In this document: in pieces, positions 33,148-56,115 of the stretch | Layout of the letters: every line of letters starts with the position of its first letter | Position numbering within the stretch: position 1 is the stretch's first letter | IMG/VR virus record: IMGVR_UViG_3300029505_000004 | Location: 460 to 64,459 of that record | Reading direction: 5' to 3' (one strand) | DNA length: 64,000 bases | Source: a virus | Made by a program: the position numbers and the translations under genes | The notes under the pieces: generated by a model | Seen by the model: only the letters and a program-made list of their open reading frames with translations | Database searches by the model: none | What the model was told of the DNA's origin: nothing

Positions 33148-35126
33148 GCTGCTTGTTGTATTATTCCGTCTTGTGGAGAAGCATTTGCATCGTTCATCAT
33201 CTTCTCCATAAGTGCCGGATTTTGACTTGCTATCTGTTGCATCAGTGCCGGATCCATCTGTGTCATGTTCTGGTTTTCTGCCATTTCCTGCTCTGCACGT
33301 TTGATACTTTCCAATATCTTTGATGCAAAAGGCAGACTGGAGTTTTCCAGCAAGGTCTTTACGTTGATAGCCTGCATTTCAAACAGCTTCATCAGGAATT
33401 CGTTTTCAAGCATTTGGAATGTAGGTGTATTTGTTCCTTCTGTAAGTTCAAGATCAAGCTGCGCACCCTGAACCTTCTCCGGATCGTAATATTTAGATTC
33501 TTCAGAATAATCTTTTCCTCCCAATTCTATATATCTGGGCGAATCATAATATTGCTGAATGGTCTGCATCAGCTTGAGATCTCTCCTTTTCCGGAAGGCT
33601 TTAAACGAATCGAACAAACCTTTCAGGTTCATAGATGCGTTTTCTGTCTGTTGTGCATAAAGAGAAGCGGCAGTTCCGGATGAAGGATCCTTTCCCTGCA
33701 TAGCTGAGTTTACACCGGCAATATCATTGATCAGTTTTAACTGAAGGCTTAACAGTTCATAGTCCCCCTGAATGGCTCCGGATCCGTTAAGCTGTGTAAT
33801 GACTGAACGAATGTCTTTACCCGGTTTCAGTCGGCAGAAAAGAACTCCGTTATATCTTACGTATTCATCAATGATTTCTTCCCGGCTCATGCTGTCGAAT
33901 GCATCTTCATCCACAACTACCAGACCTTTTGCTGAAGAAGAACGTATAAAGTCTATCAGCGTCATGGTACGGTTGATACTTCTCTGCTGGTCGATAAAGT
34001 CCTCTATGAAATTGAATATCTTTCCGTGTATGATAGGATAAGCATGAAATACATAGTTGTGCTGGCCGTGCCAGTATGGGCTTCTTCCTTCCTGCAAAAC
34101 ATCACCCCACGGGGAAAGATATCTGTAATACCAGTATCTTTCTACTTTGAATTCGTATTCTATCAAAAGAATATCTTCCTCTTCTACTCCAGCTTCAAGT
34201 GCTTCGGATATTCTTTTCTGGTTTATGTATTCCAGCTTATTTACTTCGTTCAATCCGACAAAGCCCCAGCTTCCATCAAGCGTGTCGTGGTAGAAATATG
34301 CGTCCCTGCTCTCCAGCTTCCAGCCTAGGATAACCCGGCAAAGATCTACTTCTGCAGGTGTGTAAAAATCGGCATTTTTCTGGTTGTAACCCTGTACACC
34401 GTCAACGAATGATCTTCTTGGGTGATCATTGGTTCCATATATGCTTTCCAGCCATTCACGATCCTTTTTACTCTTTGCAAAGGCCGCGACTACCTGTTCA
34501 AAGTCCATATCAAAGATTTCACCGATGCAGGTTATATCCCATCCTCGCTGATCTTCTATGTTTGTATTGAAAAATAGCCGTGAGGGATCAACATTGTAAA
34601 CCCATGCATCATTCATGTGCTTGTACTCGTTGTACCCGAACTCTATTCTTTGTGCAATGTAGCCGCCACATTCCAGAACCATAAGGCTGGCTGCGTCCAG
34701 TTCTGTGATCTCGTTAAGTGACTGAGCATATTCCATTGCAATACTCATCATTTCACCGATCTTTGCTTCATCCCGATCTCTTACCGAGCATATAGGTTTT
34801 GTTACGTTTCTTCTGAACTGGCCTTCTATGTTCTTAACAATCGGTGCTATCATGTTGTTTTTCAAAGGAACCTTACCATTTTTCTTGATAAGTTCTCCTT
34901 CAGTCATCATCTTGCCGGTGTCCGGATCCTTTATATAGTCTCCCCATTGATCTTCTTTCGCATACATCAGGGATCTTTCCATTTTCTTACGGGCAGTGTA
35001 AAGGCTGCTCCAGTATGAAGCAAACTCTTCAAGTTCCTCATACGCCGTTCCTCTTGTGCGGTAAACGGTTTCTTTTGTCCTGTCGTCCCGCTTCGGCTTT
35101 ACAGATCTGTTTAAGAATTTATTCAT
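33144..35126 (-). CDS. putative portal protein
   Basis: 660 aa. N-terminal AKEDQWGDY-type motif common in portals. Adjacent to TerL and upstream of scaffold and capsid. Long helical Q/M-rich C-terminus. Confidence 0.65.
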   Translation of the reverse strand: MNKFLNRSVKPKRDDRTKETVYRTRGTAYEELEEFASYWSSLYTARKKMERSLMYAKEDQWGDYIKDPDTGKMMTEGELIKKNGKVPLKNNMIAPIVKNIEGQFRRNVTKPICSVRDRDEAKIGEMMSIAMEYAQSLNEITELDAASLMVLECGGYIAQRIEFGYNEYKHMNDAWVYNVDPSRLFFNTNIEDQRGWDITCIGEIFDMDFEQVVAAFAKSKKDREWLESIYGTNDHPRRSFVDGVQGYNQKNADFYTPAEVDLCRVILGWKLESRDAYFYHDTLDGSWGFVGLNEVNKLEYINQKRISEALEAGVEEEDILLIEYEFKVERYWYYRYLSPWGDVLQEGRSPYWHGQHNYVFHAYPIIHGKIFNFIEDFIDQQRSINRTMTLIDFIRSSSAKGLVVVDEDAFDSMSREEIIDEYVRYNGVLFCRLKPGKDIRSVITQLNGSGAIQGDYELLSLQLKLINDIAGVNSAMQGKDPSSGTAASLYAQQTENASMNLKGLFDSFKAFRKRRDLKLMQTIQQYYDSPRYIELGGKDYSEESKYYDPEKVQGAQLDLELTEGTNTPTFQMLENEFLMKLFEMQAINVKTLLENSSLPFASKILESIKRAEQEMAENQNMTQMDPALMQQIASQNPALMEKMMNDANASPQDGIIQQAA

Positions 35127-35221: not shown

Positions 35222-37474
35222 TTATTTCACTTCTTCAAGAAGTTCTCGTCTGGTTTCTATAATCATATCCTCTATTTCTTTTCGATCTTCTCCTTGAGAT
35301 TCTTTTGCCATATCGTTTAGTTTTTTCAACTTCTTCTGATATGGTTTGTATTTCTGGTATTTATCATACAGATCAGAATTCAGCATTTCTTTATACTCAT
35401 CTTTGTTTCCGCTTTTCTTTACACCATTAAGTTCATACTTAAACTGGTCCATTTCATCACGGAGATTAAAGTATTCTGTATTGATTCCAGAAAAAGCATT
35501 TCTTTCATCAACAGTATTAAGGAACCTGTTTACAATAGGAACATTTCTCATCACCAGATCTTCATCTTTCTGCTGTTCGATTAATGACTTTCCACCATAA
35601 TATATCGTTTTCCCAGCCTGATTGAATGTTTTGGCCATACCGCCAAAATAAGATTCAAGAAGGTGTTCTACTTTGGCAGGATTGAAATCTATAAATCCTT
35701 TTCGGAATTCAGATCCCGGACCACTACCGTTGCTGATATCATTCAGGAATTTGGAAGTATCAACAAGCCATCCTGACGTACCTTTATAAACTCTCTTCCA
35801 CTCCGGATCACGTTCGTTAAATGGAGATATCTTTGCTACCGGTTTCCCGGTGAAGTCCTGATTCCAGACATAAGCCTCAAATATTGGAGACATAATATCA
35901 GGCATAAACGTCTTTAAGCCTTCATTCCCTGTTGGATTTAAAGGCAAAAGATCTGCAAGCTGTCCTACTGTTCCTTTTGCGATATTGGTCGCGGAAGGCT
36001 TTTCTTTGCCGGTTGTAATCTGATAAGCATAATCACCCAGCCCGTAGAAAGCCCTTAATTCAATGGGAAGAGGAATAGTCAAAAACGTATCATTACCTGT
36101 ATATATACAGAGATTGTTTCTTCTTACCCATTCCGGCAGATCATTGTACGGATCATCGTCTCCACCGCCAAAGATACTGTACAATACATTGTTTATCATT
36201 GGCATTAAAAATCCTGCTGACATAAATCCGCCTAAAGCTGAATAGAACTTAACCGGTTGTTTGTCATACAGTCTTTTAAAATTGGTTAGAGACTGAACAG
36301 AAGCATTAAAGAAAAGATACAGGTTTCTGAATATACCCGAAGTCATTCCAAAAAATCCGCCGGTTTTATATCCGGCCCCTTTCTTGTTAAAGTTTACAGT
36401 TACTTCTTTCGCATCATTCACAGATTCCGTAATACTTCTACCCATTTGTCTGGAAGTCATGTACGTGGTAAATCGTGAAATATCTTCTGCCCATCTGTTG
36501 AAATCCTCAAGTCTGTCTATTGCAAAATCCATAGCCATCTTTGCGGATCCCATCTCACCGTTTATTTTTGGAAGTTCCTTCCTTACTTTTTTCTTGTACT
36601 TTTCAACATCATTCAGGTGCATGTATCCGGTTTCACCGCCATTCTCGATAAACTCCTGAAAATATCTGTCAGCTTCGGTGTTATTTGGCTTGCCATTCAG
36701 GTTTCTCAATACAACAGGCATGGCTTTCAGTATGTTCTTTCTGAACCTACTTGAATACTTCCCATCTTCTTTTATGCTTACAGCAACATTGGAAAATATC
36801 AGGTCTCTTACAAGGTTGCTTAACACAAAAGCCGGGTTTCTGGTAGTGAAGTTAGCCGCCAACCATCTGTTTGCAGTTGCAATGGATCTGAATATCGGGT
36901 TCTGTTCTACATTCGGGTTAGTCAATCCATTGATTGCCTGCGCTGCTCTTGGATTTCCATTAATGTATATAATATAATCTTTCCCGCCATTCTTTACCTG
37001 AACAACATGCTGGGAGATGTTGTTTTTATTGATCCTATAATTTATATTAAGACCATTTGACTTTTGTGTTGCACGCCCCTCATTTTTTAATTGCTTCATC
37101 TGCTCTTCGTGATTTTTGATCTTTTCAGCAATAGTTTCAGCGTTGTCGCTTTCTTGAATGTATGGCATAGATATATTCCATTCATCTTTTACCGGATCAT
37201 ATACATACCAAGCCTTTTTCAATGTAGCTATATCAGTAGGATGATTTATAACCATACTCATAAAACTTTGCTTCATCATGTTTCTGTTGCCTTGCATGAT
37301 AGCACTTTCGGCCATATTTCCAATTGTGGCAAATATTTCATCAGGAATACTCTTTCTTCCCTTTGCGGATTTCAGTACAGAACTTACAGGATTTCTTTCT
37401 GAATCAATATATTCATAAACATCTTCTGCTGTCTGTTCATCCCATCCGCGCAAGGGTACATAATACATGTACAT
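35222..37474 (-). CDS. C-terminal 750-aa fragment of the IS-split polyvalent protein
   Basis: The ORF begins MYMYYVPLRGW, directly at the IS target-site duplication. Deleting IS plus TSD (1089 nt, 3 x 363) fuses it in frame to ORF 38552-49933. Confidence 0.8.
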   Translation of the reverse strand: MYMYYVPLRGWDEQTAEDVYEYIDSERNPVSSVLKSAKGRKSIPDEIFATIGNMAESAIMQGNRNMMKQSFMSMVINHPTDIATLKKAWYVYDPVKDEWNISMPYIQESDNAETIAEKIKNHEEQMKQLKNEGRATQKSNGLNINYRINKNNISQHVVQVKNGGKDYIIYINGNPRAAQAINGLTNPNVEQNPIFRSIATANRWLAANFTTRNPAFVLSNLVRDLIFSNVAVSIKEDGKYSSRFRKNILKAMPVVLRNLNGKPNNTEADRYFQEFIENGGETGYMHLNDVEKYKKKVRKELPKINGEMGSAKMAMDFAIDRLEDFNRWAEDISRFTTYMTSRQMGRSITESVNDAKEVTVNFNKKGAGYKTGGFFGMTSGIFRNLYLFFNASVQSLTNFKRLYDKQPVKFYSALGGFMSAGFLMPMINNVLYSIFGGGDDDPYNDLPEWVRRNNLCIYTGNDTFLTIPLPIELRAFYGLGDYAYQITTGKEKPSATNIAKGTVGQLADLLPLNPTGNEGLKTFMPDIMSPIFEAYVWNQDFTGKPVAKISPFNERDPEWKRVYKGTSGWLVDTSKFLNDISNGSGPGSEFRKGFIDFNPAKVEHLLESYFGGMAKTFNQAGKTIYYGGKSLIEQQKDEDLVMRNVPIVNRFLNTVDERNAFSGINTEYFNLRDEMDQFKYELNGVKKSGNKDEYKEMLNSDLYDKYQKYKPYQKKLKKLNDMAKESQGEDRKEIEDMIIETRRELLEEVK

Positions 37475-37475
37475 G

Positions 37476-37482
37476 TTATTTA
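37476..37482. repeat. target-site duplication, left copy (TTATTTA)
   Basis: Identical 7-mer at 38565-38571, immediately outside the IS inverted repeats. Confidence 0.8.
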
Positions 37483-38564
37483 TTCCAATCAGCAGTTGAA
37501 CTGCTGTATTTTTATAAGTTTAACCGAGGTCATTTAGACCTCAAAAAAGTTGTAAATAGTTGAAAATTAAGGGATAAAATACTTGCAAAAGTCCTTGAAA
37601 ATCAGTAACTTAAAGTAAAAAACACCCCTATTTTTTGCTTGTTATGATTCCCAAGGACAAAGCTCTAAGACTTATAAGAACCTATATGTATATCTGCAAT
37701 ATGTACGAACAAAGTCTCAAATACCATTGCCAAAGATACAGCAATAATTCGAAACCGTTGTTCTCCGACGAGGAAATTCTCACGATTTATTTCTTTGTCG
37801 GTCATGAGCAGAAGTACACCCTCATCAAGGATATTCACAACTTCGCTAAAGAGTACCTACGCGACTGGTTCCCGAACCTGGTGTCCTATCAGACATTCAA
37901 TTACCGTCTAAATAGGATGGCCGGTGCTGTTACGGAACTGTCCTCACAGTTGTTAAGCATGTTCAAGCCTTCTGACTGTCAGGAAGATACCGTCATTGTT
38001 GACTCGATGCCGATAATCACATGCTGCGGAAGGAACCGTACAGGTAAGGTCGCCAGGGATATTGCCGACAAGGGATACTGTTCCACCAAGAACCTGTACT
38101 ATCATGGAATAAAGCTTCACATGGTAGGCTATCGAAGGAAAGGACATCTCCCGCATCCATGCCAGATCGCACTGTCGCCAGCATCCGAGAATGACCTGAA
38201 GGTCTTCCAGAGCGAATGCATGCCGAATCTTTTTAACAAGAAGATCTTCGCTGACAAGATATACCGAAGCTGTGACTACTGGGAGCTGGAGAGACGCGAT
38301 AAGGACAATGAGTTCTACGCTCCCGTCAAGTCCATCAAAGGGGCTTCCGAGGAAGAAAAGCAGAGAAGCAAGGCTGCAAATGACCTTTATTCTCAAGCCG
38401 TTTCTGCTGTTAGGGAACCCATTGAGGCACTCTTCAGTTGGCTGAACGAAAAAACAAATATTCAAAGAGCTTCAAAGTGCCGCTCTACTTGCGGACTGCT
38501 AATTCATACGATGGGAAAGGTTGCCATCGCATTTTTATACCTTATTTTCAACTACTGATTCAAA
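37483..38564 (+). mobile_element. insertion sequence, 1082 bp, DDE transposase (IS982-like / IS4-IS5 superfamily)
   Basis: Terminal inverted repeats TTCCAATCAGCAGTTGAA (37483-37500) and TTTGAATCAGTAGTTGAA (reverse complement of 38547-38564), 15/18 identical. Flanked by a perfect 7-bp direct repeat. Single transposase ORF. Confidence 0.85.
37644..38558 (+). CDS. DDE transposase
   Basis: ATG at 37644 (MIPKDKALRL...). The N-terminal FSDEEILTIYFF and later VDSMPI / ADKGY / FADKIY segments fit DDE_Tnp_1-type transposases. The stop lies inside the right IR. Confidence 0.8.
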   Translation: MIPKDKALRLIRTYMYICNMYEQSLKYHCQRYSNNSKPLFSDEEILTIYFFVGHEQKYTLIKDIHNFAKEYLRDWFPNLVSYQTFNYRLNRMAGAVTELSSQLLSMFKPSDCQEDTVIVDSMPIITCCGRNRTGKVARDIADKGYCSTKNLYYHGIKLHMVGYRRKGHLPHPCQIALSPASENDLKVFQSECMPNLFNKKIFADKIYRSCDYWELERRDKDNEFYAPVKSIKGASEEEKQRSKAANDLYSQAVSAVREPIEALFSWLNEKTNIQRASKCRSTCGLLIHTMGKVAIAFLYLIFNY

Positions 38565-41500
38565 TTATTTACATTAGAGTATTGTTCCTTTCCCATCATT
38601 CCGCTATCATAAGCCTTACGCAATGTGGTTTTGGTTGCATCGTTGATCTTATTCCACAACTCTTTTACATCATATGTCTGTTCAAAGTCCTTGACGTAAT
38701 TAAGCGCATCTTCTTGGAAGTTATCATGTTCTTCTCCGTCCATACTGTTAAGAATGGCCTGTGTAGCTGAATAGTCATTTACACCTCCAATATAATCACT
38801 CAGTTCTTTCAGGTATTCATATCCTGAATATAACTTCCTCAGTCTTTCCTTTTCATCTTTAAAATCCTGAATTAATTGATCCGCATTGCCCTTTTTGTTT
38901 TTGATAACTTCATCAAGCCGTTCCCGGAATGTAAGTTCTACGTTTCTTTCAATTCCGTGGGCCAACATCATATACCGTTCAATACCCTTTTGAGTAAGGC
39001 CGTACTTCTTCATCATCTTACCGGCTTCCTGAAGCATTGGCTGATAATGTTTCTTATAATACACTTCTGCTTCGGAAGTGTTTTTTGAACTTAACTGGTT
39101 TTCTGCCATGTATGCGTTCTCAAATGACTTTATAGGTTTACCGGAAACTTTAGCAATTACTTCCTGAAGGTTTTTCAAAGCAAGCATACTGTCTTGATAT
39201 GCTTCCTGTGCCTTATATTTCCATCCTTTCAAAGATTGCTCATACATACCTATACTTCCGTCTGTATCTTCCCTAAAGTAGTTACCTACTCCCATCTGGT
39301 ACTGCATGGCAACATCTTTGGCCAGATCAAGCGGTTTGTTTTTGTCTAGGTTCTGGCGGCTTCTCCAAAGGATATATTGAAGTTCATTATCACTTATTTT
39401 TATGTTAATGCCCATACGTCTCATAAGTGAATTGAATGCCTGTTTTATCCTTTGCCATACAGAAACGTCTACTCCGTTTTCAGCCATTCTTGCCATGTAT
39501 TCCTCTGTGGCTATACGTGAATTATATCCATATCTGGGAAGAGTATCAATAATTTTCTTCCTTACTTCATCGGTAACATTGGCAAAAACATCATCAAGAA
39601 AATCATCCATACGATCTTCTCCTACAAGCTGTCTCAATCCGTAATGTGCAACACCTTCGTGAAGGATAGTCTGGTTCACATCTTCCATGCTGGTAGCGTT
39701 AGGAAGATATACATACACTTTGTTGTCTGACAAAGAATACCATCCCTTTACTTTCCTTCCTTTTTCAATGGCAGATCTTACTGAGTTATCCTTTATCTGG
39801 TCAACAGAAGTTATAACCTCTACCGGAACATTCAACTTTTTAGATGTTTCTTCTACATCTTCCGATTTTATGTTGTTTAAGTCCTGATTTTCTTCCGAAA
39901 CCCTAAAACGCACATCTTCGCTATTCTCCAGTTTTGCCTTCTTTGATACGGTTACTCCCATCTTACTTAACCGGTCAAGAACTTTAGACAGGTTATCGGA
40001 AGAAATATCCGCAACCATGTAATTACCCCTAGTTGTAAACTCTTTGTTGTCAGCAAGTGAACGTAACTTGTTGTCCTCAAAGAATTCTCCACCTTGTTTT
40101 TTGGATTTAGGAACCTTTAAAGCATATCCGGATCTCCAGCCGGTGTTTTTCTCCACAATGACACGTTTATCTTCACTGATAACAGTTTCACCCTGCTGTA
40201 TCTGGATAAGTCTGCTGCTGATAGGAGCACTTGTTGTAAGATTTTCCGGCTTGAAGCTATCAGACATCAGAATACCCTGTTTCGTATCACCTTCAATAGT
40301 AGAATATGAAACCAGATATCCTTTTACGTTTTCTGATTTTTTTGTATCAACTAGGGCCTGCAGAAGGTTACCTGTAACAATATAGGCCTTCTTTCTTGTC
40401 TGGGTAGGCACATAAGAATCCCAGGTATCAACATTAAGATCCTTCAGGTAAGTCGGCTGCATCATTGTGTTCATACGGATCGAATTGAAAGCTTTTTCCT
40501 GATTTAACGGTATTTCTACTTTCCTTCTTCCGTCAAGAGTGGCAAAAATGGCAGTAGAAGAACTCGGTGAATAGTCCTTACTGAACTTGTACCCCAAAAA
40601 CATACCACGACTTGGCATAATTGTTACCAGTGTTTCGTCAAGATTGAATGGTATTACAAGAGGTTTCATAGGAGTAAACGAATTGATCTGCTTGCGAATG
40701 TTTTCCCTTCGGGCTTCAATTACGTTCTTCTGTTTTATGAAGCTTTCTTTCGATTTCTTCATAATATCCTCTACAACTACCTCGGACATTTTTTCAATTT
40801 CTTCGTCCGTAAACTCATTCTTTCCGTTTTTGCGGGCTTCTTTAGACTTTTCGATGTAGTTCTTCTTGGCTTTTTCAGAACGCTCTAACGCGCTTTGATC
40901 AAGCCTTTCTTTCAGAGTGGCAATTTTACCATCATACAATGAATTTATTTCCTTAACTCTATTGTCCAGCCATTCATTGAAAGGTTCTCCAGAAGTCATA
41001 CGACTAACTGTTGACTTGATTTCTTCCGCTTTCATGGGCTTTTTAAGGACATCTACTTCTACTTCTTCCAGATAAGTGTTATCCGCAAAGGCATTACCGC
41101 TATTGGGATCCGTTCCCGGCTTCCATATCTTTTTGCTGATAGTTTTGGCCTTCAACGGCATAGTGGTAATTTCAAGATCGTTTTCTCCGGCGTCATTAAG
41201 AAGCTGGATCTTTACATTGTATGCGTCTGTGATATCCTTGAAAACTTCTTCCTGTTCTTTTACAGGCAGGAATGGAAGATATCTGGCTATTTTGGCCGCA
41301 CACCCTTCTTTACCTGCGGTGTTGGTATCTCCTGACTGGGATTCTTCTCCTTCGCTTGTGAGGATTTTAAGAGGATCACCCAGTTTTTCGGACAACTCCG
41401 GATGCTCAAGCATATACTGCCATGTCACATCGTCACCGTACTTGTTGAGGTAATCAACAACTTCCATTTCGTTGAACTTGGATTTCTGAGAAGATGTAGT

Positions 41501-44500
41501 ATTTGCATCAAGAGACTTAAGTTTTGCCTTGAACATCATCTGTAATCTTTGTTCTGCCGGGATAGACGACATGATATACTCATATTTTCCTCTGAACTTC
41601 TGGCCGGTTCTGTCTATACGTCCTCGCATCTGCACTTCATCATTGATATCACTCTGGAACTGGGCAAACACCATGACGCGCTGACGCTGATCCTCAAACT
41701 TGGGTGAAGCATGAAGGGATATACCTGTACTACCAGACTTGTTTACCATAAGCACGTCAAGTTGTCCGTTGTTGAAATCACGTGCGGCAGACTTCTTATC
41801 ACGGTCCTTACGGTTCTGTATGACATACTTTCCGTTTTCGTCCTGAACCATCTCAAGTGTTCTACCTGTGATTTCTCCAACCTTATATCCTGCCTTCTGG
41901 ATCTTCATCTTAATTGCGTCCATAGGGCTTATAGGAAGGTCCGCGGAAAGGTTTTCAATCTTTTCCCTGATCTCGTAATACTTGTTTTGTCCGGCTTCCG
42001 GAAGGTCGTTCACAGTGAAGAACTTGTTTTCCTTTTCTCCCTTCAGGTTGGTTTCCGTATATCTCATAACTCCGTCAAGCGCACGCATAAGAGTTGCTGA
42101 GAAGTTTGGCACCTTATCCATAGGAGTGTCTTTAGGTGCTTCATCCAGAAATCCTTCCATCGTATTGGTGAAGGATATTACAGGCTTAAAACCATTCTTA
42201 AGGTTTTCAATAACCCTGTTGGCGACTGCATCTGCCTTAAGAGAGAAAAGCAACTGATTTACCAGATTATACATTTTGCTGGCAAATGGTGTATTGGTTA
42301 CTCCCAGTTCTGCGGTACCCTGCTGGAGATCGGAATAACCGCCTTGTTCGGACAATTCTTCGGAAATGCCTTCGACAATAGGTGTAATGTAGTCTTTCTG
42401 GAACGCCCTGATATCACTGAATATTGAAGATACTTCATCGAATTGTTTTCTCTGAACCGCATCTTCTTCTTCACTTACCGGCATCCAGTCAATAGTTACA
42501 CCTTGAAAACTTCTTTCTCTTCGGATCATCTGTCCGGATTGAACAAGCTGTTTGGACATGATCTCCTGCAATGTAACACCACCTTGAGATATTGCTTCGA
42601 TCATATCCTGTGGTGATATGCCAGACTTGGAAAGGTCGGTTTTCATTGCATATATAGGCATGTTATCCGCACGTTTGGCGAATGTGGCAGACAGGAATGT
42701 TACTCCTTTTACCTTTGGCATGATATACTGCATGTACATGGATCCACCGCCACTTCCACCGGCTGTATGACTTTCATCTAGGATCATAATGTTATCCTTT
42801 GACAAGGCTTGAATAACATCACGTCTTTCCTGACCGCTCTTGTCTGCTGCCGAAGGAGATTTCTTCTTATAACTCTTGTCTTTTTCAGCTATTCCATCTT
42901 CTTTTGGCTCATATTCTTTCGTTCCATTATTGATCTGGGAATATGTAGTTATGACGTAATCATACTCTTCTGGAAGCTTTCCGTTCTTCATAATGTAGTC
43001 AAACACTCTTTTCTTCTCCTTGTCGGTAGGAAGTTTGTGTACTACATTCCCGGACGCATCAGTAATAGCTGCGTTTTTTGGATCTGACGCGATGATAAAC
43101 GGCCTTAAATCTCCGCTGCCTATATCTGCAAGGTCTCTGTAATTATCAGAGAAAAGCGCGGGCTTCTGAGTGAAGTATATAGGGTTATAACCCTTCCTTA
43201 CCGCATATCTGATTAAGGCTGCACCCTGACGGCCCTTTCCGACACCGGTCATATCTCCGATAATGAATCCGTTTCCTTTATTCATCTGGTTTATAGCCAA
43301 AGAAACAGAATCAATCTGTTCAGCGGCCAGATAACTGAACAGTTCGTCTTTGCTTGAATATCCAAGCTGGTCAACCAAGAACTGGTCTACATCACCAATG
43401 TTAGCCAGAGAATCGGCAAGAACTTGTGCTTGATTTGCCGGAACAACTGACATAAGTGTACCGGACTGGCTTCTGTTGGGATATGGGACTTTTTCATCAC
43501 TGAGGTTTACTGATAATCTGCTTCTGCCGGTGTTATCTCCTGAATCAGATCTGACAGATCCACCATTCCGGCTTCCTCCGGTACTTCCTCCGTTATCAGA
43601 TCCTCGCTGCTCTTGAACAGGTTCAACGCTTCCTGCATTTGATCTGTCCGCATTATCCAATTTGCCAGCATTTTCTTCTGCTGTGGATCGTTCAGCCTGC
43701 TCTGGTCCGGATGCGGTAGTATTACCGGTGCTTCCCATGTCATTGTCAGATCCGACTTTTTTGTCTGGTCGTACGGATTTTCCCCGTTCTCCAGACTTTG
43801 GTCTATTGCTGACATTATTGTTTGCTCCACTTCCTTCTGTGTCAGTGGTCCGGGTTTCTCCTTCTGTACCGTTAAAGAGATCCCCCATTTGCTGTAATGA
43901 ACGTATATCATCTTGAACTCGGTTATATAATTCTTCAAAGCTGTTTATCTGTTCCGCTCTTGCTTTGCTCTTAACCGGTGGAGCAATAAGTTTAAACGGA
44001 CCAGTTTTTCTTCCGTTGATAAGGATAATACGAACGTCATATTTAGTTCCGTTCCTCTTGTACATATCCCCGTTAAGGTTGATAACATCAACCACATTAT
44101 AGTGTGAGTAAAGATACGCAAAAAGTTTCATATCTTTGCTCTGCATCGCACCATTATCTCGATAAGAAGTATTTCCACCGATAACAATAGCCGCCCTTCC
44201 GTTATCCTTCATGGATTCAAGCGCATTAATAGCCATCAAACCTTCCAGAGAACTGATCTTGATCTGTCCGTCGTCGAATTCTTTTGCGGTTGTCGATCCA
44301 AATGGGGGATTTGTCAGAACTGCGTCAACAGATCCTTCAAATGGTATCAGTGCATCCTGATTGGTTACCTGGGCATATCCCAGCGTACGAAGGTTTTCCA
44401 GTCTCCTTTCATCAATATCATTAACATGTACAGTATTGGCCGGGAAAGCTATTGTTAGTGCGCCATTCCCTGCTGAAGGTTCCAGAACGCTTTCAACCGT

Positions 44501-47500
44501 TTTGCCATCCTTGACAAACTTCCCCATTACATATCCGAAGGGAGTAGGCGTACTGTATTGCTGGCGTTCAAACCTTGTGCTGTCTCTTGCATTAAGAAGA
44601 GGTTGCATATTGTACATATCGACAATAGTGTCATATCCCTGCTTTTGTTTTGTTGCGTCTCCGTTAATGTAGGATTCAGCTATTAATCTTGTCTCGTTGG
44701 TCATTGCCAGTTCAACAAGTTCCTGCATATCTGTTGCTGACATGTCAGAAAGCATGTCATAACCCTTAAGGATATCTTTAACTTCCTTCATGGTTAGGGG
44801 ATCTACCTGTTCATCATTTCTCTTAGCTATTGCCTTCTCTGCAATTTTAACGCCAATTATAGAAACGGCTTCTTTCTCCTGCTCGGCTTTTTTCTGGTAT
44901 TCCTCAGAGTTGCCAAAGAGATCAGAAGGTGATTTTTTTACATCATTACTGGAAGTTGCCTTTTCTATTTCCTTCTCTTTAGCAACATTTTCTATCTGCT
45001 GCATTACATCAGGAACAGACTTATCGAAGTTGGTTACATCAAACTGACTGACTTCGCTGTCCGGGCTCATTCTTTCCGACAAGCCGTTTTCTATTGATTG
45101 CGGCATATATCTTGCGGAGCTATAAAATGACTTCAAGTAAGGCCTGATAACGTCTCCAAGATCATCTACCATTGCTTTGCAATAGTCTGCAAACTTGACT
45201 GCACCGCGTTCTATGTGGTACACAGCCATTTCTGCGCCAATAGCAATAATTTCAGGATCAATACCGGCATTTAGCTGGCCCAACTTCTGTTTAAGTCTAT
45301 TTTTAAGTTCCTGGTAACGTTCATCGGAAACAATGTTGTTACTTTTTGCAGGTGTATCTTCTGCGTTAGTGGTTGTTTCCTTTTCGGAAACAGGCACTAC
45401 ACTCTTATACTCAGCAAAAGGTTTGGTTTTTCTGTGGGATGAATTAACCCACTTCTTAAACTCTTCTTTGGAAACACGTGTTATGTTTCCTAGTCCGGTC
45501 CAGTCTTTTGAGTAATTAGCCATGTATGCGCGTTTGGCCGCAAGGGCTGATTTAAACCCATACATAACCTTGTGTTCGTCAAATGTTCCATCAGGGTTTA
45601 CCTGATCAATAACAAACACATCACCAGTTTCCGGGTTATCAGAAAGGAATACATCAATGTGATCACCATCTACGCCCTCGGTACCGTGGATATATCCATA
45701 GTCGTTGTTCATGGTAACAGACCATTCATTACCATCTGCGTCTTTTCCAGAACGTACAGATCCCTTCGGGTTTTCAATAGTTACATCGTACCCGTCAATC
45801 TTAACATGGCCTTTCTTGTAGTTACCGGCTTCCTTCTGTGCTTCAGTTGGATTTTGATCTACTTCCGCACGTGCAGCTTCGATATCGGTTTTTACTGTTC
45901 CTTCTGGTTCAGGTACCACGCTACCGCTTTTGCCATCAGTTTTAATTGCTGGCTCCGGTTGTTCTTCGACTTCTCCAGTTCTTCCTTCGTTATCACTTTC
46001 GCGTTCAGGCTGAACTGTATTGCCTTGTTCACTGTCTGTTTGTCCTTCAGTGCTTCCTGCACTTTCTGTTTCTGCTCTTCGTTCATAGTCGTTAATGATT
46101 TGCTCAAAGATAGTATTTAATTCTTCATCTGTTACGGATGAATACAAGTTATTAAGTTCTTCTTCGATATAGTCTGAATATGCAATCCATTCAGGTACCG
46201 ACATTCTGTTTTCAGAAGCTTCCCATTCAATAAGCTGGCGTTCCTGATCTTCTTCATATCCCGGAATGTTTTCTTCGATATCGGTTCCATGCATGTTTTT
46301 TGCGGCGTCCCACATCTTAGAAGGACTTCCATATTCTTGGAAAGCATTAATGATCATGTTGAACACGTCCTGATCAGTAACCATTCCCTGCAAGTTCTCC
46401 GGCATATCAGCATGGATCTGTTCTGCTGCGGCTTCTGGCGTTAAACCATCGGAAGATAATGCCCATACAAGCTTTTTCCTTTCTTCCGGTGAGTTGGAAT
46501 AGCCCAGATGTGAAGAAAGGCCCTGTGCTCCTTCTGTGTCAGACAGAGAGAACGAAACGCGGCCTGTTGCTATTTCTCGCAAAACATGTTCCTGTGGAGT
46601 TATGGAAGGGCCTAGATCTGCATCTTCTTTGACATAACGAACCTTTTTCCGCGGTTCCTTGCGTTCAAAGGCTCCTGCATCAATCTTCTTCTGAACTTCC
46701 TGCTGTGCAGCTTGCTGTTCTTCGGCTGTCATGGATGCAAGACGTTGCTGGTTTTCTTTAGCCTTTTCTTCTGCCTGAGCAATAAGTCCGGTAGGCCTTT
46801 TTGCTTCAAGATCCGCTGCAACCTGATTCCAATAGGATATCTTGTCATTGATAGCTTTTTTTGCCTTCTTTGTCTCAATAATTCCCTGAATAGTGTTTCC
46901 GGAAGATTTTTTCTTTTCAACTTTTTTTAGTTCGTTATTATAATACTCAATCATCTGCGTTACGGTGTCCTTCGCATCATCAACATTATCACTGATTTCC
47001 AGCAATGCGGCAGAAGTATCTGCAATCGGTGCGGCTTCAAAGTCTTGTTCACCTCTTTCGTTAAGAGGAATGCGAGACATGGCAGTCTGATTTTCCTGAA
47101 CCGGTTGTTCAGAAGTTTCTTCCTGTACAGGCTGTTCAGCTACAGAAGGCTGTGTTTCTTCTCCATTAGCTGGCTGTTGGCCGTTGATGGCATTTCTTAT
47201 TTCTTCTTCGGACATCAGCTGTGACTGGGCTGGCGTTCCATTTTCATCAAGAAGGTACACTTCATATCCGTCTGGAGTTACCCTGTTGACTTCATAATTG
47301 TTTCCACCCATTGTAAATCTGGTTTCTGGTCCTATGGGCTGTTGTTCTTGGGCCGGAATAGAATTAATCTGTGCTTCTTCGGCTTGCAAGACTTCTTCTT
47401 GCGCATCATTACCGGCACGCTGGATCATTTCTTCTGCCGGTGTATTATCTACAAGAGAACTGAACATAGATACAGGAGCCATTTTCACACGTCCATCTTC

Positions 47501-49933
47501 CGACATGTAGTATATGGTCTTATCAGATTGATTTTCATCAACTTTACCTTCGTTATCAAACACAAGGTTTCCGCGAAGAACATTAACAGGATTTTTGGTT
47601 AGCTTGTTATTTACCCGCATGATCGTGCCGGTGGTTGCATTGGTAAGGCTTTCGACTTGTGCTTCCGCTTGTCTCCTTGCATTATCAGCCTGATCTTGCA
47701 CCCAATAATTATAATTAACAAAATCATCATAGGCTTGTTTGTATTTCATTATGTTGTTGGCCGTTTCCGGATCAAATTGAGATATGATAGCCTGATATCC
47801 TTCTTCTGAATTGATGATAGAGTTGAGTTCTTCATCGTTCAAGCTGATCTTAGAACGCGTCTCATTCAGATTGTTGATAATGTTCCTTTTTTCAACAGCA
47901 ATTTCTTCCGGCATCATCTGTTTGTCTGCTTCCTGTAAGGTTTGTTCCTGAAGGACTGAAGATATATACTTGATAGCATTCTTCTTCATATCCGGAGACA
48001 TAGGGCTGGACAGAACATCTTTGACCATGTTGCGGGCCGTTTCAATATCAGCGTCCTGAAGGGCTTCTCTTACACCGGACCAATCTTCGCCCATTGCATC
48101 CTGCATCTGGGTTTCAAAATTACGCATGTTGCGGTAGTTCTTGTATTTATCACGAAGATATCCACCTGTTCCGGCTGCACCAAACAATGCAGACATGGGA
48201 GCAACACCGAGGAACGTATCAATATTCTGATCAAGATCGACAAGCTGTTCAGGTGTCATATCTCCTATTGCGGTAGATACAAGGTTATTGGCAACTTCTT
48301 CGGCATATTCTCCCAATGGATCAGATATCTTGGCACGTCTGGCAATCTCCTGCATTTCCCGGAAGCCTTGACTATTGACAACGTCCTTGAACGCCTTACC
48401 TACTGATGCAGGTATGATCTTTCCAACTTTGTTCGCACCAGTAACACGACCGATATATCCCAACATAGGCGCAAAGTATTCGCCCAGAAGTTCGCTTCCG
48501 GTTTCTGCGGCTGTTGATATTATGGACTTACCGAGTGCTTCCGCTCCAGTCTGTACATTCTCCCGACCATCATAAGATACCGTTCCGTCTGCGTTAGGCT
48601 TAACCTGCACGTCTCCCAGACCTCTACGCTGATAATCTGCGGCCACTCTTGCACTTCCGAATGTGGCGGTGTGCGCTGCAACGTCTCCCAGACCGGCAAC
48701 AGTTCTGGCGGCACCTTTAGCCAGCCCAGTTGTAGCCCGGCCAAGGCCCATTTGTGCAGCCTTATCAGCCGCATACTTAACAATGGCTTTAGACGCTGGT
48801 TTGGTCAAAGCCTGAACTGCACCCATACCGGCAATCATGTCAAGCATGAACGGAAGTGATTCTGCTGTTACACCGCCAGCCTTATAACCTCTTCCAAGAT
48901 CACCGGAATAATACATCTGTGTTGCAGCATTGGTGACAAGAGCCTGCATAAGTGCATCTTCCGAAGGAGTAAGTTCTTCCCCCTTGTCTACTTTGTCCAT
49001 GACTTTCTTTGCGGCAGAATAATTCTTGAGATCCTGCAATCCCATTGCCCATCCGTCCAGTGGTGCGTCCTTGAAACCACGCGCAAACCCGGCAAAGAAG
49101 TTGGTGTTTCCTTTCTTCTTCGCTTCATTGGTAATATTCTGAGCCTGTTCTATTAGGGTAGACGCATATTCCAACTGTTTGTCGGTATCATTCTGCTCCC
49201 CGGCAAGATACGCCTGTGACATGGTTGAGAATATACCGCCATCACCAACAGATCTCACGCGCTGTTGTCTTTCCTTAGCACGTTCCTGCCTTGCCGCATT
49301 GATCAGTTCATTAACGCTGTTGATCTGCTCCTGATTCTGCCTTTTGAACAGTTCAAGATTCTGTTCCTTCATATAGGGATCATTGGCAGACTTCTGTGCC
49401 TGTTCAACTCTCTGCTGTTGGTCAATACCGATTTTACGGACTAGATCCGAAGGATTGTTTTCAAACAGATCTTGCTGGGGCAAAGGCCTTGTGGCAAGAT
49501 TATTCCCCTTGCTCCTGAACATATCAGGAACATTGTCAAGAATGTACCCTTGTGTCTTGGGATCATAAGAAGGCATATCTTGAACTGGCTGTACTTGCGG
49601 CTGTTCCGGCTGAACATTCTGGGTTCTCACATTGGTTGCCGGTTCTTCCTGTGATCTGGCTACCAGTTTGCTCGAAAACGAATCGAAGTCGCCAACATCA
49701 TATCCATCATTTGTAATTGTCTCATACAACGATTTCCGTTTAGTTTCGTCCTGTACATTCTTGCTGAACGAATCGAAGTCGCCAACATCATATCCATCAT
49801 TTGTAATTGTCTCATACAACGATTTCCGTTTAGTTTCGTCCTGTACATTCTTGCTGAACGAATCGAAGTCGCCAATATCATAACCATCTTGGGTTAGTCT
49901 ATCATACAATACTCTTGTCTTATTATCTTCCAT
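38552..49933 (-). CDS. giant polyvalent protein, N-terminal 3793-aa fragment (DarB-like)
   Basis: Carries an N6-adenine MTase, a strawberry-notch/SNF2-like helicase, an HEXXH motif and a pyrophosphatase-like motif. Motifs seen: LEPSAGNG (about 44465-44487) and TNPPFG (about 44299-44316); GDMTGVGKGRQGA (about 43225-43262), ILDESHTAGG (about 42760-42790), STGISLHA and QMRGRIDRTGQ (about 41600-41633); HEGVAH (39644-39661); ENPKGSVRSG...GVDGDHIDVF (about 45645-45800). The last 3 codons and the stop are read from IS sequence. Confidence 0.9.
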   Translation of the reverse strand: MEDNKTRVLYDRLTQDGYDIGDFDSFSKNVQDETKRKSLYETITNDGYDVGDFDSFSKNVQDETKRKSLYETITNDGYDVGDFDSFSSKLVARSQEEPATNVRTQNVQPEQPQVQPVQDMPSYDPKTQGYILDNVPDMFRSKGNNLATRPLPQQDLFENNPSDLVRKIGIDQQQRVEQAQKSANDPYMKEQNLELFKRQNQEQINSVNELINAARQERAKERQQRVRSVGDGGIFSTMSQAYLAGEQNDTDKQLEYASTLIEQAQNITNEAKKKGNTNFFAGFARGFKDAPLDGWAMGLQDLKNYSAAKKVMDKVDKGEELTPSEDALMQALVTNAATQMYYSGDLGRGYKAGGVTAESLPFMLDMIAGMGAVQALTKPASKAIVKYAADKAAQMGLGRATTGLAKGAARTVAGLGDVAAHTATFGSARVAADYQRRGLGDVQVKPNADGTVSYDGRENVQTGAEALGKSIISTAAETGSELLGEYFAPMLGYIGRVTGANKVGKIIPASVGKAFKDVVNSQGFREMQEIARRAKISDPLGEYAEEVANNLVSTAIGDMTPEQLVDLDQNIDTFLGVAPMSALFGAAGTGGYLRDKYKNYRNMRNFETQMQDAMGEDWSGVREALQDADIETARNMVKDVLSSPMSPDMKKNAIKYISSVLQEQTLQEADKQMMPEEIAVEKRNIINNLNETRSKISLNDEELNSIINSEEGYQAIISQFDPETANNIMKYKQAYDDFVNYNYWVQDQADNARRQAEAQVESLTNATTGTIMRVNNKLTKNPVNVLRGNLVFDNEGKVDENQSDKTIYYMSEDGRVKMAPVSMFSSLVDNTPAEEMIQRAGNDAQEEVLQAEEAQINSIPAQEQQPIGPETRFTMGGNNYEVNRVTPDGYEVYLLDENGTPAQSQLMSEEEIRNAINGQQPANGEETQPSVAEQPVQEETSEQPVQENQTAMSRIPLNERGEQDFEAAPIADTSAALLEISDNVDDAKDTVTQMIEYYNNELKKVEKKKSSGNTIQGIIETKKAKKAINDKISYWNQVAADLEAKRPTGLIAQAEEKAKENQQRLASMTAEEQQAAQQEVQKKIDAGAFERKEPRKKVRYVKEDADLGPSITPQEHVLREIATGRVSFSLSDTEGAQGLSSHLGYSNSPEERKKLVWALSSDGLTPEAAAEQIHADMPENLQGMVTDQDVFNMIINAFQEYGSPSKMWDAAKNMHGTDIEENIPGYEEDQERQLIEWEASENRMSVPEWIAYSDYIEEELNNLYSSVTDEELNTIFEQIINDYERRAETESAGSTEGQTDSEQGNTVQPERESDNEGRTGEVEEQPEPAIKTDGKSGSVVPEPEGTVKTDIEAARAEVDQNPTEAQKEAGNYKKGHVKIDGYDVTIENPKGSVRSGKDADGNEWSVTMNNDYGYIHGTEGVDGDHIDVFLSDNPETGDVFVIDQVNPDGTFDEHKVMYGFKSALAAKRAYMANYSKDWTGLGNITRVSKEEFKKWVNSSHRKTKPFAEYKSVVPVSEKETTTNAEDTPAKSNNIVSDERYQELKNRLKQKLGQLNAGIDPEIIAIGAEMAVYHIERGAVKFADYCKAMVDDLGDVIRPYLKSFYSSARYMPQSIENGLSERMSPDSEVSQFDVTNFDKSVPDVMQQIENVAKEKEIEKATSSNDVKKSPSDLFGNSEEYQKKAEQEKEAVSIIGVKIAEKAIAKRNDEQVDPLTMKEVKDILKGYDMLSDMSATDMQELVELAMTNETRLIAESYINGDATKQKQGYDTIVDMYNMQPLLNARDSTRFERQQYSTPTPFGYVMGKFVKDGKTVESVLEPSAGNGALTIAFPANTVHVNDIDERRLENLRTLGYAQVTNQDALIPFEGSVDAVLTNPPFGSTTAKEFDDGQIKISSLEGLMAINALESMKDNGRAAIVIGGNTSYRDNGAMQSKDMKLFAYLYSHYNVVDVINLNGDMYKRNGTKYDVRIILINGRKTGPFKLIAPPVKSKARAEQINSFEELYNRVQDDIRSLQQMGDLFNGTEGETRTTDTEGSGANNNVSNRPKSGERGKSVRPDKKVGSDNDMGSTGNTTASGPEQAERSTAEENAGKLDNADRSNAGSVEPVQEQRGSDNGGSTGGSRNGGSVRSDSGDNTGRSRLSVNLSDEKVPYPNRSQSGTLMSVVPANQAQVLADSLANIGDVDQFLVDQLGYSSKDELFSYLAAEQIDSVSLAINQMNKGNGFIIGDMTGVGKGRQGAALIRYAVRKGYNPIYFTQKPALFSDNYRDLADIGSGDLRPFIIASDPKNAAITDASGNVVHKLPTDKEKKRVFDYIMKNGKLPEEYDYVITTYSQINNGTKEYEPKEDGIAEKDKSYKKKSPSAADKSGQERRDVIQALSKDNIMILDESHTAGGSGGGSMYMQYIMPKVKGVTFLSATFAKRADNMPIYAMKTDLSKSGISPQDMIEAISQGGVTLQEIMSKQLVQSGQMIRRERSFQGVTIDWMPVSEEEDAVQRKQFDEVSSIFSDIRAFQKDYITPIVEGISEELSEQGGYSDLQQGTAELGVTNTPFASKMYNLVNQLLFSLKADAVANRVIENLKNGFKPVISFTNTMEGFLDEAPKDTPMDKVPNFSATLMRALDGVMRYTETNLKGEKENKFFTVNDLPEAGQNKYYEIREKIENLSADLPISPMDAIKMKIQKAGYKVGEITGRTLEMVQDENGKYVIQNRKDRDKKSAARDFNNGQLDVLMVNKSGSTGISLHASPKFEDQRQRVMVFAQFQSDINDEVQMRGRIDRTGQKFRGKYEYIMSSIPAEQRLQMMFKAKLKSLDANTTSSQKSKFNEMEVVDYLNKYGDDVTWQYMLEHPELSEKLGDPLKILTSEGEESQSGDTNTAGKEGCAAKIARYLPFLPVKEQEEVFKDITDAYNVKIQLLNDAGENDLEITTMPLKAKTISKKIWKPGTDPNSGNAFADNTYLEEVEVDVLKKPMKAEEIKSTVSRMTSGEPFNEWLDNRVKEINSLYDGKIATLKERLDQSALERSEKAKKNYIEKSKEARKNGKNEFTDEEIEKMSEVVVEDIMKKSKESFIKQKNVIEARRENIRKQINSFTPMKPLVIPFNLDETLVTIMPSRGMFLGYKFSKDYSPSSSTAIFATLDGRRKVEIPLNQEKAFNSIRMNTMMQPTYLKDLNVDTWDSYVPTQTRKKAYIVTGNLLQALVDTKKSENVKGYLVSYSTIEGDTKQGILMSDSFKPENLTTSAPISSRLIQIQQGETVISEDKRVIVEKNTGWRSGYALKVPKSKKQGGEFFEDNKLRSLADNKEFTTRGNYMVADISSDNLSKVLDRLSKMGVTVSKKAKLENSEDVRFRVSEENQDLNNIKSEDVEETSKKLNVPVEVITSVDQIKDNSVRSAIEKGRKVKGWYSLSDNKVYVYLPNATSMEDVNQTILHEGVAHYGLRQLVGEDRMDDFLDDVFANVTDEVRKKIIDTLPRYGYNSRIATEEYMARMAENGVDVSVWQRIKQAFNSLMRRMGINIKISDNELQYILWRSRQNLDKNKPLDLAKDVAMQYQMGVGNYFREDTDGSIGMYEQSLKGWKYKAQEAYQDSMLALKNLQEVIAKVSGKPIKSFENAYMAENQLSSKNTSEAEVYYKKHYQPMLQEAGKMMKKYGLTQKGIERYMMLAHGIERNVELTFRERLDEVIKNKKGNADQLIQDFKDEKERLRKLYSGYEYLKELSDYIGGVNDYSATQAILNSMDGEEHDNFQEDALNYVKDFEQTYDVKELWNKINDATKTTLRKAYDSGMMGKEQYSNVNNLNQ
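38565..38571. repeat. target-site duplication, right copy (TTATTTA)
   Basis: See the left copy at 37476-37482. Confidence 0.8.
49681..49860. repeat. two identical 90-bp tandem repeats (plus diverged flanking copies) in the 5' end of the polyvalent gene
   Basis: 49681-49770 equals 49771-49860 base for base. A diverged copy starts at 49861. They encode the 30-aa unit DGYD.GDFDSFSKNVQDETKRKSLYETITN. Confidence 0.9.
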
Positions 49934-53596: not shown

Positions 53597-53741
53597 AGCT
53601 GATCTTCAAATTAAAGGTAATTTTTTGGGTACTCTTTTTCTTCCAAAAGTGGAAGAATTTTCCTTTTTTTTGAAGGTTGCCGGAGTTTTTGTGAGAAAAT
53701 CAATAGGGTAAACTCCTTATTTTTCAGCCTGTTATGAATTG

Positions 53742-53783
53742 AGCCGAAAGCGGGACTCGAACCCGCGACTTACTCATTACGAA
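53742..53783 (-). other. attP core candidate: 3' half of a tRNA-Thr(CGT) gene (anticodon loop to discriminator)
   Basis: The - strand reads TTCGTAA (anticodon loop, CGT), TGAGT, AAGTC, then the T-arm GCGGG-TTCGAGT-CCCGC, then TTTCGGC-T. No matching 5' half (acceptor GCCGAAA, D-arm) exists upstream. Confidence 0.6.
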
Positions 53784-53879
53784 TGCAATATCCGACTACC
53801 CTTTAATGTATTGGTTTTTAATCAGTTATAAAGATTTTTTGAAATTTAAAAGGTACTTTTTTGGTATTCAGTTACTCTT

Positions 53880-54622: not shown

Positions 54623-54624
54623 GC

Positions 54625-55245: not shown

Positions 55246-55266
55246 ACAATATATAATTAATGTTAA

Positions 55267-55317
55267 TTACAGAAATTTCTCTATGTTTTTATACTCGCTT
55301 TACAGAGATTTCTCTAT
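55267..55317. promoter_or_regulatory. paired operator candidates in the repressor/early divergent region
   Basis: TTACAGAAATTTCTCTAT (55267-55284) and TTACAGAGATTTCTCTAT (55300-55317), 17/18 identical, starts 33 bp apart. Core AGAAATTTCT is palindromic. Confidence 0.55.
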
Positions 55318-56111: not shown

Positions 56112-56115
56112 GATA

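Follow-up and report, generated by a model that had tools for sequence, protein, structure and literature searches.

A giant gene upstream of the portal gene is split by an insertion sequence

The 64,000-nt stretch of viral DNA analyzed here (the window; positions 460 to 64,459 of IMG/VR record IMGVR_UViG_3300029505_000004) carries, next to a P22-like portal gene, a giant multidomain gene of the phage polyvalent type that is interrupted by an insertion sequence (IS). The polyvalent gene lies on the minus strand and the IS transposase is encoded on the plus strand (Table 1). Two minus-strand open reading frames (ORFs) share one frame, ORF A (38552..49933, 3793 amino acids [aa]) and ORF B (35222..37474, 750 aa), and are separated by a 1082-bp element of the IS982 family. 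Deletion of 1089 nt (3 x 363), corresponding to the IS and one copy of its target-site duplication, yields a single ORF of 13,623 nt encoding 4540 aa, with the junction reading KEQYSNVNN/MYMYYVPLRGW and a spacing equal to that of the homologs. ORF A itself runs on into the IS, where three IS-encoded residues (LNQ) precede a stop codon, and the 3' part of the gene opens with the near-invariant sequence M-Y-x-Y-Y-[IV]-P-L-R-G-[WF].

The closest named relatives with an uninterrupted gene are the Bacteroides phages BS-TP4 (gp3, 5391 aa, PQ571277) and BKO1-TP3 (gp55, 5553 aa, PQ571269), and the alignment of ORF A ends where that of ORF B begins, at one residue of each homolog (BS-TP4 4622, BKO1-TP3 4789). 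The predicted empty site, searched as a 26-mer, has an exact match in seven IMG/VR contigs, all sharing 98-99% identity with the restored gene and continuing uninterrupted through the junction. Profile matches follow the same pattern: phrog_14770 (3427 positions) is matched by ORF A over positions 674-2134 and by ORF B over positions 2712-3419, as expected of one split gene, and PHROG 10089 ("DarB-like antirestriction") and PHROG 616 also match, the former with both halves (E 2e-19 for ORF B). The locus is one disrupted 4540-aa polyvalent gene, not two genes. The lesson for annotation is that a transposase found together with a pair of large ORFs ahead of a portal gene is best taken for a sign of a single disrupted gene.

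Other causes of the split were also considered. A frameshift or sequencing error was ruled out, since what fills the gap is a complete IS, its inverted repeats and target duplication included. An intron, an intein or stop-codon recoding across the gap was ruled out as well, since stops close all three minus-strand frames between ORF A and ORF B and the plus strand encodes the 307-aa transposase ORF. A sequence-only reading of the window had placed here, at these coordinates, a protein of about 4540 aa in one reading frame once restored. Strand, coordinates and size are correct once the IS is removed, and the two halves do share a frame, but they form two ORFs and the cause of the split, the IS, had been missed.

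Table 1. Features of the disrupted polyvalent gene, the insertion sequence and the adjoining portal gene (positions in the window; aa numbering of the restored protein)
Feature	Position	Strand	Evidence or remarks
Polyvalent gene, 5' part	38565..49933	-	Codons 1-3789 and two bases of codon 3790; BS-TP4 gp3 is colinear as far as its residue 4622
30-aa N-terminal repeat (aa 16-86)	49677..49888	-	90-nt tandem repeat, 2.4 copies, 98% matches (TRF)
LPD14 domain (aa 474-602)	48128..48514	-	Pfam PF18827, E 6e-43
Polyvalent-type inorganic pyrophosphatase (InPase; aa 1364-1496), motif DGDHID	45446..45844	-	Pfam PF18823, E 6e-58
N6-adenine-type DNA methyltransferase (MTase) core (~aa 1790-1990)	43964..44566	-	Pfam N6_Mtase PF02384
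Low-complexity linker rich in G/S/N/D/R (aa 2031-2150)	43484..43843	-	Composition count
Strawberry-notch-type superfamily 2 (SF2) ATPase/helicase (aa 2202-2923)	41165..43330	-	Pfam AAA_34 and Helicase_C_4
Alpha/beta domain with LHE[AGV]V[AG]H.GLR (HExxxH at aa 3425) and downstream ATEEY	39239..39829	-	20-homolog alignment, AlphaFold2 (AF2) model
Target-site duplication copy 1, TAAATAA	38565..38571	-	Perfect 7-bp direct repeat
IS982-family insertion sequence	37483..38564	+	1082 bp; 18-bp imperfect terminal inverted repeats, 15/18 matching
IS transposase ORF	37635..38558	+	307 aa from TTG; likely ATG start 37644; DDE-type
Target-site duplication copy 2, TAAATAA	37476..37482	-	Perfect 7-bp direct repeat
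Polyvalent gene, 3' part	35222..37475	-	aa 3791-4540; most of conserved C-terminal module
LPD38 domain (ORF B residues 440-647; aa 4230-4437)	35534..36157	-	Pfam PF18857, E 5e-42
P22-like portal gene, immediately downstream	33144..35126	-	Pfam P22_portal, E 7e-37

The interrupting element is probably a divergent IS982-family member

The element resembles the IS982 family in its length (~1 kb), its single DDE transposase, its terminal inverted repeats, its short target duplication and its multicopy occurrence in Bacteroidales. The transposase matches the NCBIfam IS982 transposase model NF033520 with an E-value of 3e-32, but its score of 112 bits lies under the 130-bit equivalog cutoff, so the element is probably a divergent member of the family. 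Against Pfam, the transposase scored 25.9 with DDE_Tnp_1_3 (cutoff 27) and 24.2 with DDE_Tnp_1 (cutoff 23).

Seven full-length copies of the IS (91-99% identity), together with many fragments, were found in Phocaeicola, Alistipes, Dysgonomonas and other Bacteroidales genomes. One chromosomal copy in Alistipes is flanked by the identical TAAATAA duplication, and a Phocaeicola metagenome-assembled genome (MAG) holds a 99.4% identical copy along with many IS fragments at contig ends. Several other copies are without a clean duplication, and the end of the element is ambiguous by one base (1082 or 1083 bp, with a 7- or 6-bp duplication). An initial guess at the IS boundaries (a 28-nt inverted repeat with an ATGT duplication) did not restore the reading frame; the correct ends were given by the homolog alignment.

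The junction between IS and phage sequence was absent from the viral and metagenome contig collections searched, in which the empty site was found seven times. Because the target duplication is present and the frame is restored exactly, the insertion is a real transposition and not a chimera; it is recent and, within the collections searched, apparently private to this genome. The insertion point lies about 50 aa inside the conserved C-terminal module, in which homology to gp75 of phage Bcep22 starts at aa 3742.

N-terminal and central domains of the restored protein

The N-terminal repeat is matched twice by phrog_24532 and is followed, at a distance, by the LPD14 and InPase domains (Table 1); the N-terminal part with the repeat and LPD14 is conserved within the lineage. 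The InPase domain gave the sole sequence match to a solved structure, with residues 636-763 at the C-terminus of the portal protein of Pseudomonas phage Pa193 (PDB 9b41_L, E 8e-29). This C-terminus of gp19 is unmodelled in the cryo-EM structure, in which residues 94-528 were built (PMC11456595), and fusions of InPase to portal proteins had been noted earlier by Iyer et al. 2017 (PMC5512222). The MTase domain matches N6_Mtase with 24.1 bits against a cutoff of 20.4 (E 3e-5) when its segment is scanned alone, a match that is missed in the whole-protein scan; motif I (EPSAGNG, at 1818) precedes motif IV (NPPFG, at 1875), and among PDB entries the domain weakly matches type I M subunits. Beyond the low-complexity linker, the helicase is composed of AAA_34 (aa 2202-2491, E 9e-17) and the Strawberry-notch C-terminal domain Helicase_C_4 (aa 2683-2923, E 3e-23), and carries the motifs GVGKGRQ at 2230, DESH at 2386 and QMRGRIDRTGQ at 2768.

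All motifs quoted in the sequence-only reading are present. That reading had named a 30-aa tandem repeat, a resemblance to inorganic pyrophosphatase, an N6-adenine MTase and a G/S/N/R-rich linker followed by a strawberry-notch/SNF2-like helicase, and the repeat finder, the three Pfam assignments and the composition count bear these out; of the double label given to the helicase, the Pfam matches are to the Strawberry-notch type, and the SNF2-rel_dom model gave no match. It had also proposed profile searches, and these returned matches to both MTase and helicase families.

Between InPase and MTase, a helical stretch (aa 1532-1619; 45077-45340) shows 42% identity to residues 1344-1433 of Bcep22 gp75 (E 2e-17). 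It matches no Pfam model and could represent a conserved domain, so far undescribed, in proteins of this class.

The HExxxH domain and the C-terminal module

The C-terminal ~1200 aa are conserved within the lineage and are made up of the HExxxH domain, of a helical region and of an ~800-aa module that carries the PLRG motif and LPD38. Both LHE[AGV]V[AG]H.GLR and ATEEY are strongly conserved across an alignment of 20 homologs, and because of this conservation the HExxxH motif is likely to be functionally important. In the AF2 model of aa 3345-3790 (predicted local distance difference test [pLDDT] 75, ~80-90 over the HExxxH domain), strands are followed by the helix bearing the motif. The sequence-only reading had taken HEGVAH for a metallopeptidase motif. 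Its spacing is H-E-x-x-x-H (six residues), as opposed to the HExxH of zincins; the domain has no Pfam match even at E-values up to 10, and Foldseek comparison of the model with the PDB returned nothing better than E 1.6, the best zincin-like matches being weak (anthrax lethal factor 6zxj_I and MATCAP 7z6s_C, E ~2.6). A zincin protease identity for HEGVAH is unsupported by these searches.

The PLRG motif is nearly invariant among homologs, and tblastn with ORF B recovered 359 phage records, among them those of Vibrio phages, Stx-converting phages and Ralstonia GP4-like phages as well as of Burkholderia Bcep22-like phages, whose gene carries a DarB-like annotation. The structural model of ORF B matches, in BFVD, the last pieces of many split giant phage polyvalent proteins, whose parent protein names point to lysozyme, RelA/SpoT, methylase or helicase domains. 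Judged from these similarities, the ~800-aa C-terminal module is common to many distant phages and the remainder of the protein varies. The ORF B model is of medium confidence (pLDDT 65) and has no relative in the PDB with an E-value below 1. Of the proposed C-terminal module starting at PLRGW, an LPD38-containing module is borne out by its profile match; a likeness to PLxRFG-type domains is unsupported, the PLRGW stretch matching no Pfam family. Membrane-spanning segments in the module were considered and rejected, hydrophobic peaks being only modest (maximum 1.43, 19-residue Kyte-Doolittle window).

Among the matches listed, the database homologs of ORF B (n=120) are all at most 1307 aa long, compared with real genes of 4500-6700 codons. 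These protein-database lengths are unusable as evidence for stand-alone forms of the module, the inspected entries being fragments from contig ends, gaps and frameshifts, and giant genes are under-represented by the lengths in that collection.

Relatives of the gene and exchange of the central cassette

The genes of BS-TP4 and BKO1-TP3 share the gene order of the window (two small ORFs ahead of the giant gene, which is followed by a P22-like portal gene and then by divergent genes), and the succession of giant gene and portal gene is kept in all relatives examined, that is, in these two phages and in the metagenomic relatives. BS-TP4 gp3 is 38% identical over aa 1482-3791 and 37% identical over the last 750 aa, continuously across the junction. 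BKO1-TP3 gp55, annotated as "DarB-like antirestriction", does not align to aa 1670-3357, the MTase-helicase part of the window protein. The gene in the window differs from both in being shorter and IS-interrupted. INPHARED contains no near-identical phage, and the nucleotide identity to BS-TP4 and BKO1-TP3 is too low for megablast; relatives at 98-99% nucleotide identity are IMG/VR contigs only.

Comparison with these near-identical relatives, which match at 98-99% identity in the flanks, revealed variation in the central part of the protein. In a 98% identical relative (L009, IMGVR_UViG_3300045988_112129), aa 1348-3346 (39896-45892) are replaced by 1109 aa that carry a different InPase, LPD23 and an HEVQH region instead of the InPase-MTase-linker-helicase series, and in another (L006, IMGVR_UViG_3300045988_108815) 258 extra aa are present at position 3345. 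The cassette break points fall on short shared sequences, namely GSVVPEPEGTV and ENSEDVRFR/ENQDLNNIK. The window adds a well-delimited polyvalent protein from a Bacteroidales phage, for which variation of the central cassette has been mapped by comparison with relatives at 98% identity. With relatives of 5391, 5553 and, for a gene found in two pieces, 5956+785 aa, and a pairing of MTase and Strawberry-notch helicase that is already known (Iyer et al. 2017, PMC5512222), the size of 4540 aa and the domain combination, which had been called unusual, are on present comparison not unusual for the lineage.

The tripeptide RFR recurs at or near module boundaries, with two occurrences in the window protein compared with ~0.3 expected from composition. 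DVRFR (aa 3340-3344; 39902-39916) lies exactly at the cassette junction, and further sites are at residues 1456 and 1790 of the L009 ORF and at residue 2202 in BS-TP4 and BKO1-TP3. This recurrence could mark a linker or a cleavage site, or could be due to chance.

Relation to P1 DarB, Bcep22 gp75 and the polyvalent class

P1 DarB (2255 aa), which protects DNA against type I restriction enzymes (PMC5512222), resembles the window protein in joining an N6-adenine MTase and then an SF2 ATPase in one polypeptide and in the location of its gene next to the portal gene. By BLASTP, however, only 135 MTase residues of the two proteins align (24% identity, pairwise E 2e-4 to 6e-4), with the MTase motifs in register (EPSAG.G and N.PFG), and the helicase gives no significant alignment to that of P1 DarB. 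Pfam assigns N6_Mtase, SNF2-rel_dom/ResIII and Helicase_C to P1 DarB, and only AAA_34 and Helicase_C_4 to the helicase of the window protein; the InPase, LPD14, LPD38 and repeat modules are absent from P1 DarB. A tblastn search with the MTase-helicase region at E 1e-5 recovered only BS-TP4 and two Acinetobacter phage records, and not P1. These comparisons suggest that the window protein may work like DarB but is not, by sequence, a member of the DarB family.

A closer likeness is found in the class of Bcep22 gp75 and JC1 gp69 (phrog_10089), also encoded by giant genes (4515-4602 aa) of the morphogenesis module and ending in a homologous C-terminal LPD38 module; BLASTP aligns aa 3742-4498 of the window protein with Bcep22 gp75 (E 2e-31). 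As in the window protein, the MTase and SF2 ATPase of Bcep22 gp75 lie in mid-protein, and the aa 1532-1619 stretch is shared. The Pfam domains of Bcep22 gp75 are SLT (residues 74-165), an Eco57I-type MTase, SNF2-rel_dom/ResIII/Helicase_C and LPD3. The window protein differs in having LPD14, InPase, N6_Mtase and a Strawberry-notch helicase, and Pfam finds in it no match to the lytic transglycosylase (SLT) that is N-terminal in Bcep22 gp75. Bcep22 gp75 aligns with P1 DarB over MTase and helicase (E 5e-20, 6e-19 and 3e-16) and is truly DarB-like by sequence, unlike the window protein.

Iyer, Burroughs, Anand, de Souza and Aravind described polyvalent proteins in 2017 as combining many unrelated domains per polypeptide in a portal-terminase context, with InPase and LPD38 confined to the phage type (PMC5512222). 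The restored ORF combines LPD14, InPase, N6_Mtase, AAA_34 with Helicase_C_4, and LPD38 in such a setting. The metallopeptidase (MPTase; HExxH) that acts as a hub in that class is common but not obligatory, and the HExxxH domain found here matches no Pfam model derived from that work. On its domain content, the window protein is classified as a phage-type polyvalent protein that shares its C-terminal module with Bcep22 gp75-type virion proteins. The earlier description as a DarB-like polyvalent protein is right in kind: the gene is a multidomain polyvalent one, and it is loosely DarB-like, with PHROG 10089 matching both halves and BKO1-TP3 gp55 annotated accordingly; its link to P1 DarB is thin, being limited to the MTase (24%, E 6e-4). 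In this lineage, the label "DarB-like" reflects a shared C-terminal module and functional analogy, not orthology to P1 DarB.

Proposed function and alternative explanations

We interpret the locus as the phage-type polyvalent gene of a temperate, podovirus-like Bacteroidales phage, encoding a virion-delivered anti-restriction payload that is broken here by the IS, and assign this reading a probability of roughly 0.72. By analogy with P1 DarB, Bcep22 gp75 and JC1 gp69, the protein would be made late, packed into the capsid and ejected with the DNA; JC1 gp69, a DarB-like protein of 4515 aa, was detected in CsCl-purified virions with 51 unique peptides (PMC9144972). The C-terminal module, because it is shared with distant phages, would be the part that provides incorporation and ejection, and the central cassette would be a replaceable payload, here a predicted adenine MTase coupled to a double-stranded DNA translocase, plus the InPase. 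Following the methylase-helicase dyad model of Iyer et al. 2017, in which a Strawberry-notch variant occurs "in a few instances" (PMC5512222), the MTase-translocase pair might modify or shield incoming DNA against restriction, and the InPase might clear pyrophosphate or a nucleotide signal. The IS leaves the payload ORF without most of the module and ORF B without a demonstrated promoter; most likely, the delivered effector has thereby lost its function in this phage or prophage. In an integrated prophage, such decay would be cost-free.

Several points weigh against this interpretation. Packaging, ejection and anti-restriction activity are all proposed by analogy, and the similarity to P1 DarB amounts to a weak MTase alignment with a helicase of a different family. 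The role given to the C-terminal module is conjecture, given the pLDDT 65 of its model and the absence of PDB relatives, and an autoprocessing protease within the protein, as had been proposed, is unsupported. The window contains only phage genes, with no host flank visible, and if it represents a packaged genome rather than an integrated prophage, phage carrying the IS must be viable. ORF B could likewise be expressed from inside the IS or by reading through it, although this is not favoured.

That last point leads to the reading in which the split gene still works, as a 3793-aa payload and a 750-aa C-terminal protein made as two polypeptides, with ORF B expressed from a promoter in the IS or through its end and the insertion being tolerated, if not selected for. 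The start of ORF B is an in-frame ATG, the conserved Met of MYxYY[IV]PLRG, one base past the duplication, and BFVD contains full-length proteins of ~500-1250 aa that carry the module with little N-terminal extension (M1IP02, S0A237, A0A8S5QA82). One metagenomic relative (L036, Logan SRR33171483_2986) has the gene in two pieces, of 5956 and 785 aa, separated by one in-frame TAG 6 codons before the same Met. Set against this, homology to Bcep22 gp75 starts ~50 aa before the break, at aa 3742, and close relatives are continuous from aa 3357; the IS therefore cuts a conserved region and not a linker. Among the other database proteins checked that appear to start at or near this Met, L037 is explained by a contig end, L034 by a scaffold gap, L035 by a 1-nt frameshift and L040/L041 by a truncated remnant. 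The 150 nt upstream of ORF B, read by eye and with no promoter tool run, show no match to the Bacteroides -33/-7 promoter consensus, and the IS junction occurs in none of the contigs searched, compared with seven empty sites. We regard a working two-polypeptide form as improbable.

A natural two-gene arrangement at the same Met was rejected on the cases checked, namely those just listed and the single in-frame TAG of L036; the exception is a scaffold (L042, ENA ERZ28614406 scaffold_21399, 1-55) in which the sequence just upstream of the Met is unrelated to the polyvalent gene, with only 55 nt before the contig end, and which could reflect another insertion or a different upstream module. The TAG of L036 (9979-9984) lies ahead of MYQYYIPLRGF and aligns with a Gln in the window protein; a nonsense mutation, an error in sequencing, or suppression or recoding of the codon could each account for it.

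The protein might instead be mainly a structural or ejection component, its conserved ends building or traversing an ejection conduit or organizing head DNA and its enzymes being incidental cargo directed elsewhere, for instance at nucleotide signalling or at early steps of transcription and replication. It is the C-terminal module and not the MTase-helicase pair that is common to distant phages, L009 dispenses with both MTase and helicase at 98% identity, InPase domains are also fused to portal proteins such as Pa193 gp19 at its C-terminus (PMC5512222), and the gene always adjoins the portal gene in this lineage. Hydrophobicity peaks are nevertheless modest (maximum 1.43), with no clear membrane-spanning segment, a PDB comparison of the ORF B model gave no solved ejection protein of similar fold, and the known activity of P1 DarB is protection of DNA against type I restriction enzymes (PMC5512222). 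This alternative, though unlikely, is the strongest of those considered; it is compatible with the virion-delivered payload that we favour, the difference being mainly one of emphasis. An assembly artefact, in which a host repeat was joined chimerically into the phage contig and the gene is intact in reality, would fit with an IS that is multicopy in Bacteroidales and often found at MAG contig ends, where assemblers struggle. It is made very improbable by an element that is complete (1082 bp), with its own inverted repeats and a perfect 7-bp duplication of phage sequence, whose removal restores the frame exactly, and by the independent Alistipes copy with the same TAAATAA duplication.

More speculatively, the HExxxH/ATEEY domain could act as a zincin-like autoprocessing protease of an undescribed kind, the PLRG/LPD38 module could serve universally as a "chassis" for capsid incorporation and ejection, and the junctions (e.g. 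D-V-R-F-R at aa 3340-3344) could be cleavage sites or in-frame recombination joints by which near-identical phages swap anti-defence cassettes, or the IS-split form could be a viable two-gene version; we consider this a long shot. Under the favoured reading of a delivered payload inactivated by transposition, the insertion amounts to a natural knock-out in which the payload is parted from most of the conserved C-terminal module. Comparison of IS-bearing and IS-free phages could show whether the LPD38 module is needed for packaging or delivery, and whether the phage can do without the protein.

Genomic context

The genes near the polyvalent gene include a terminase-like gene, a gene for an SU10-like capsid protein and a tyrosine integrase gene. 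The sequence-only reading had set the giant gene between candidate internal or ejection proteins and the portal; the P22-like portal gene does adjoin it (E 7e-37), but the two ORFs upstream have no family match in Pfam or PHROG. The rest of the window encodes an S24 repressor, RecT, a PDDEXK nuclease, an SNF2 helicase, a protein with an Nmad5 domain and two tRNAs. The region 52361-56623 holds a Bacteroides-type tyrosine integrase (Arm-DNA-bind_5, SAM-like and catalytic domains), the S24 LexA/CI-like repressor, tRNA-Arg(CCT) and tRNA-Met; given the integrase and the S24 repressor, the phage is predicted to be temperate.

On the plus strand, at 60788-63203, the SNF2-type helicase (477 aa) is followed by the Nmad5 (nucleotide-modification-associated) domain protein, an arrangement that hints at a DNA-modification module of its own within the early region. 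Finally, a 1655-aa ORF on the minus strand (21594-26561) has a weak C-terminal match to the Peptidase_S74 chaperone and is equivalent in position to BS-TP4 gp14, which has been reported as a target of a diversity-generating retroelement (PMC12694917).

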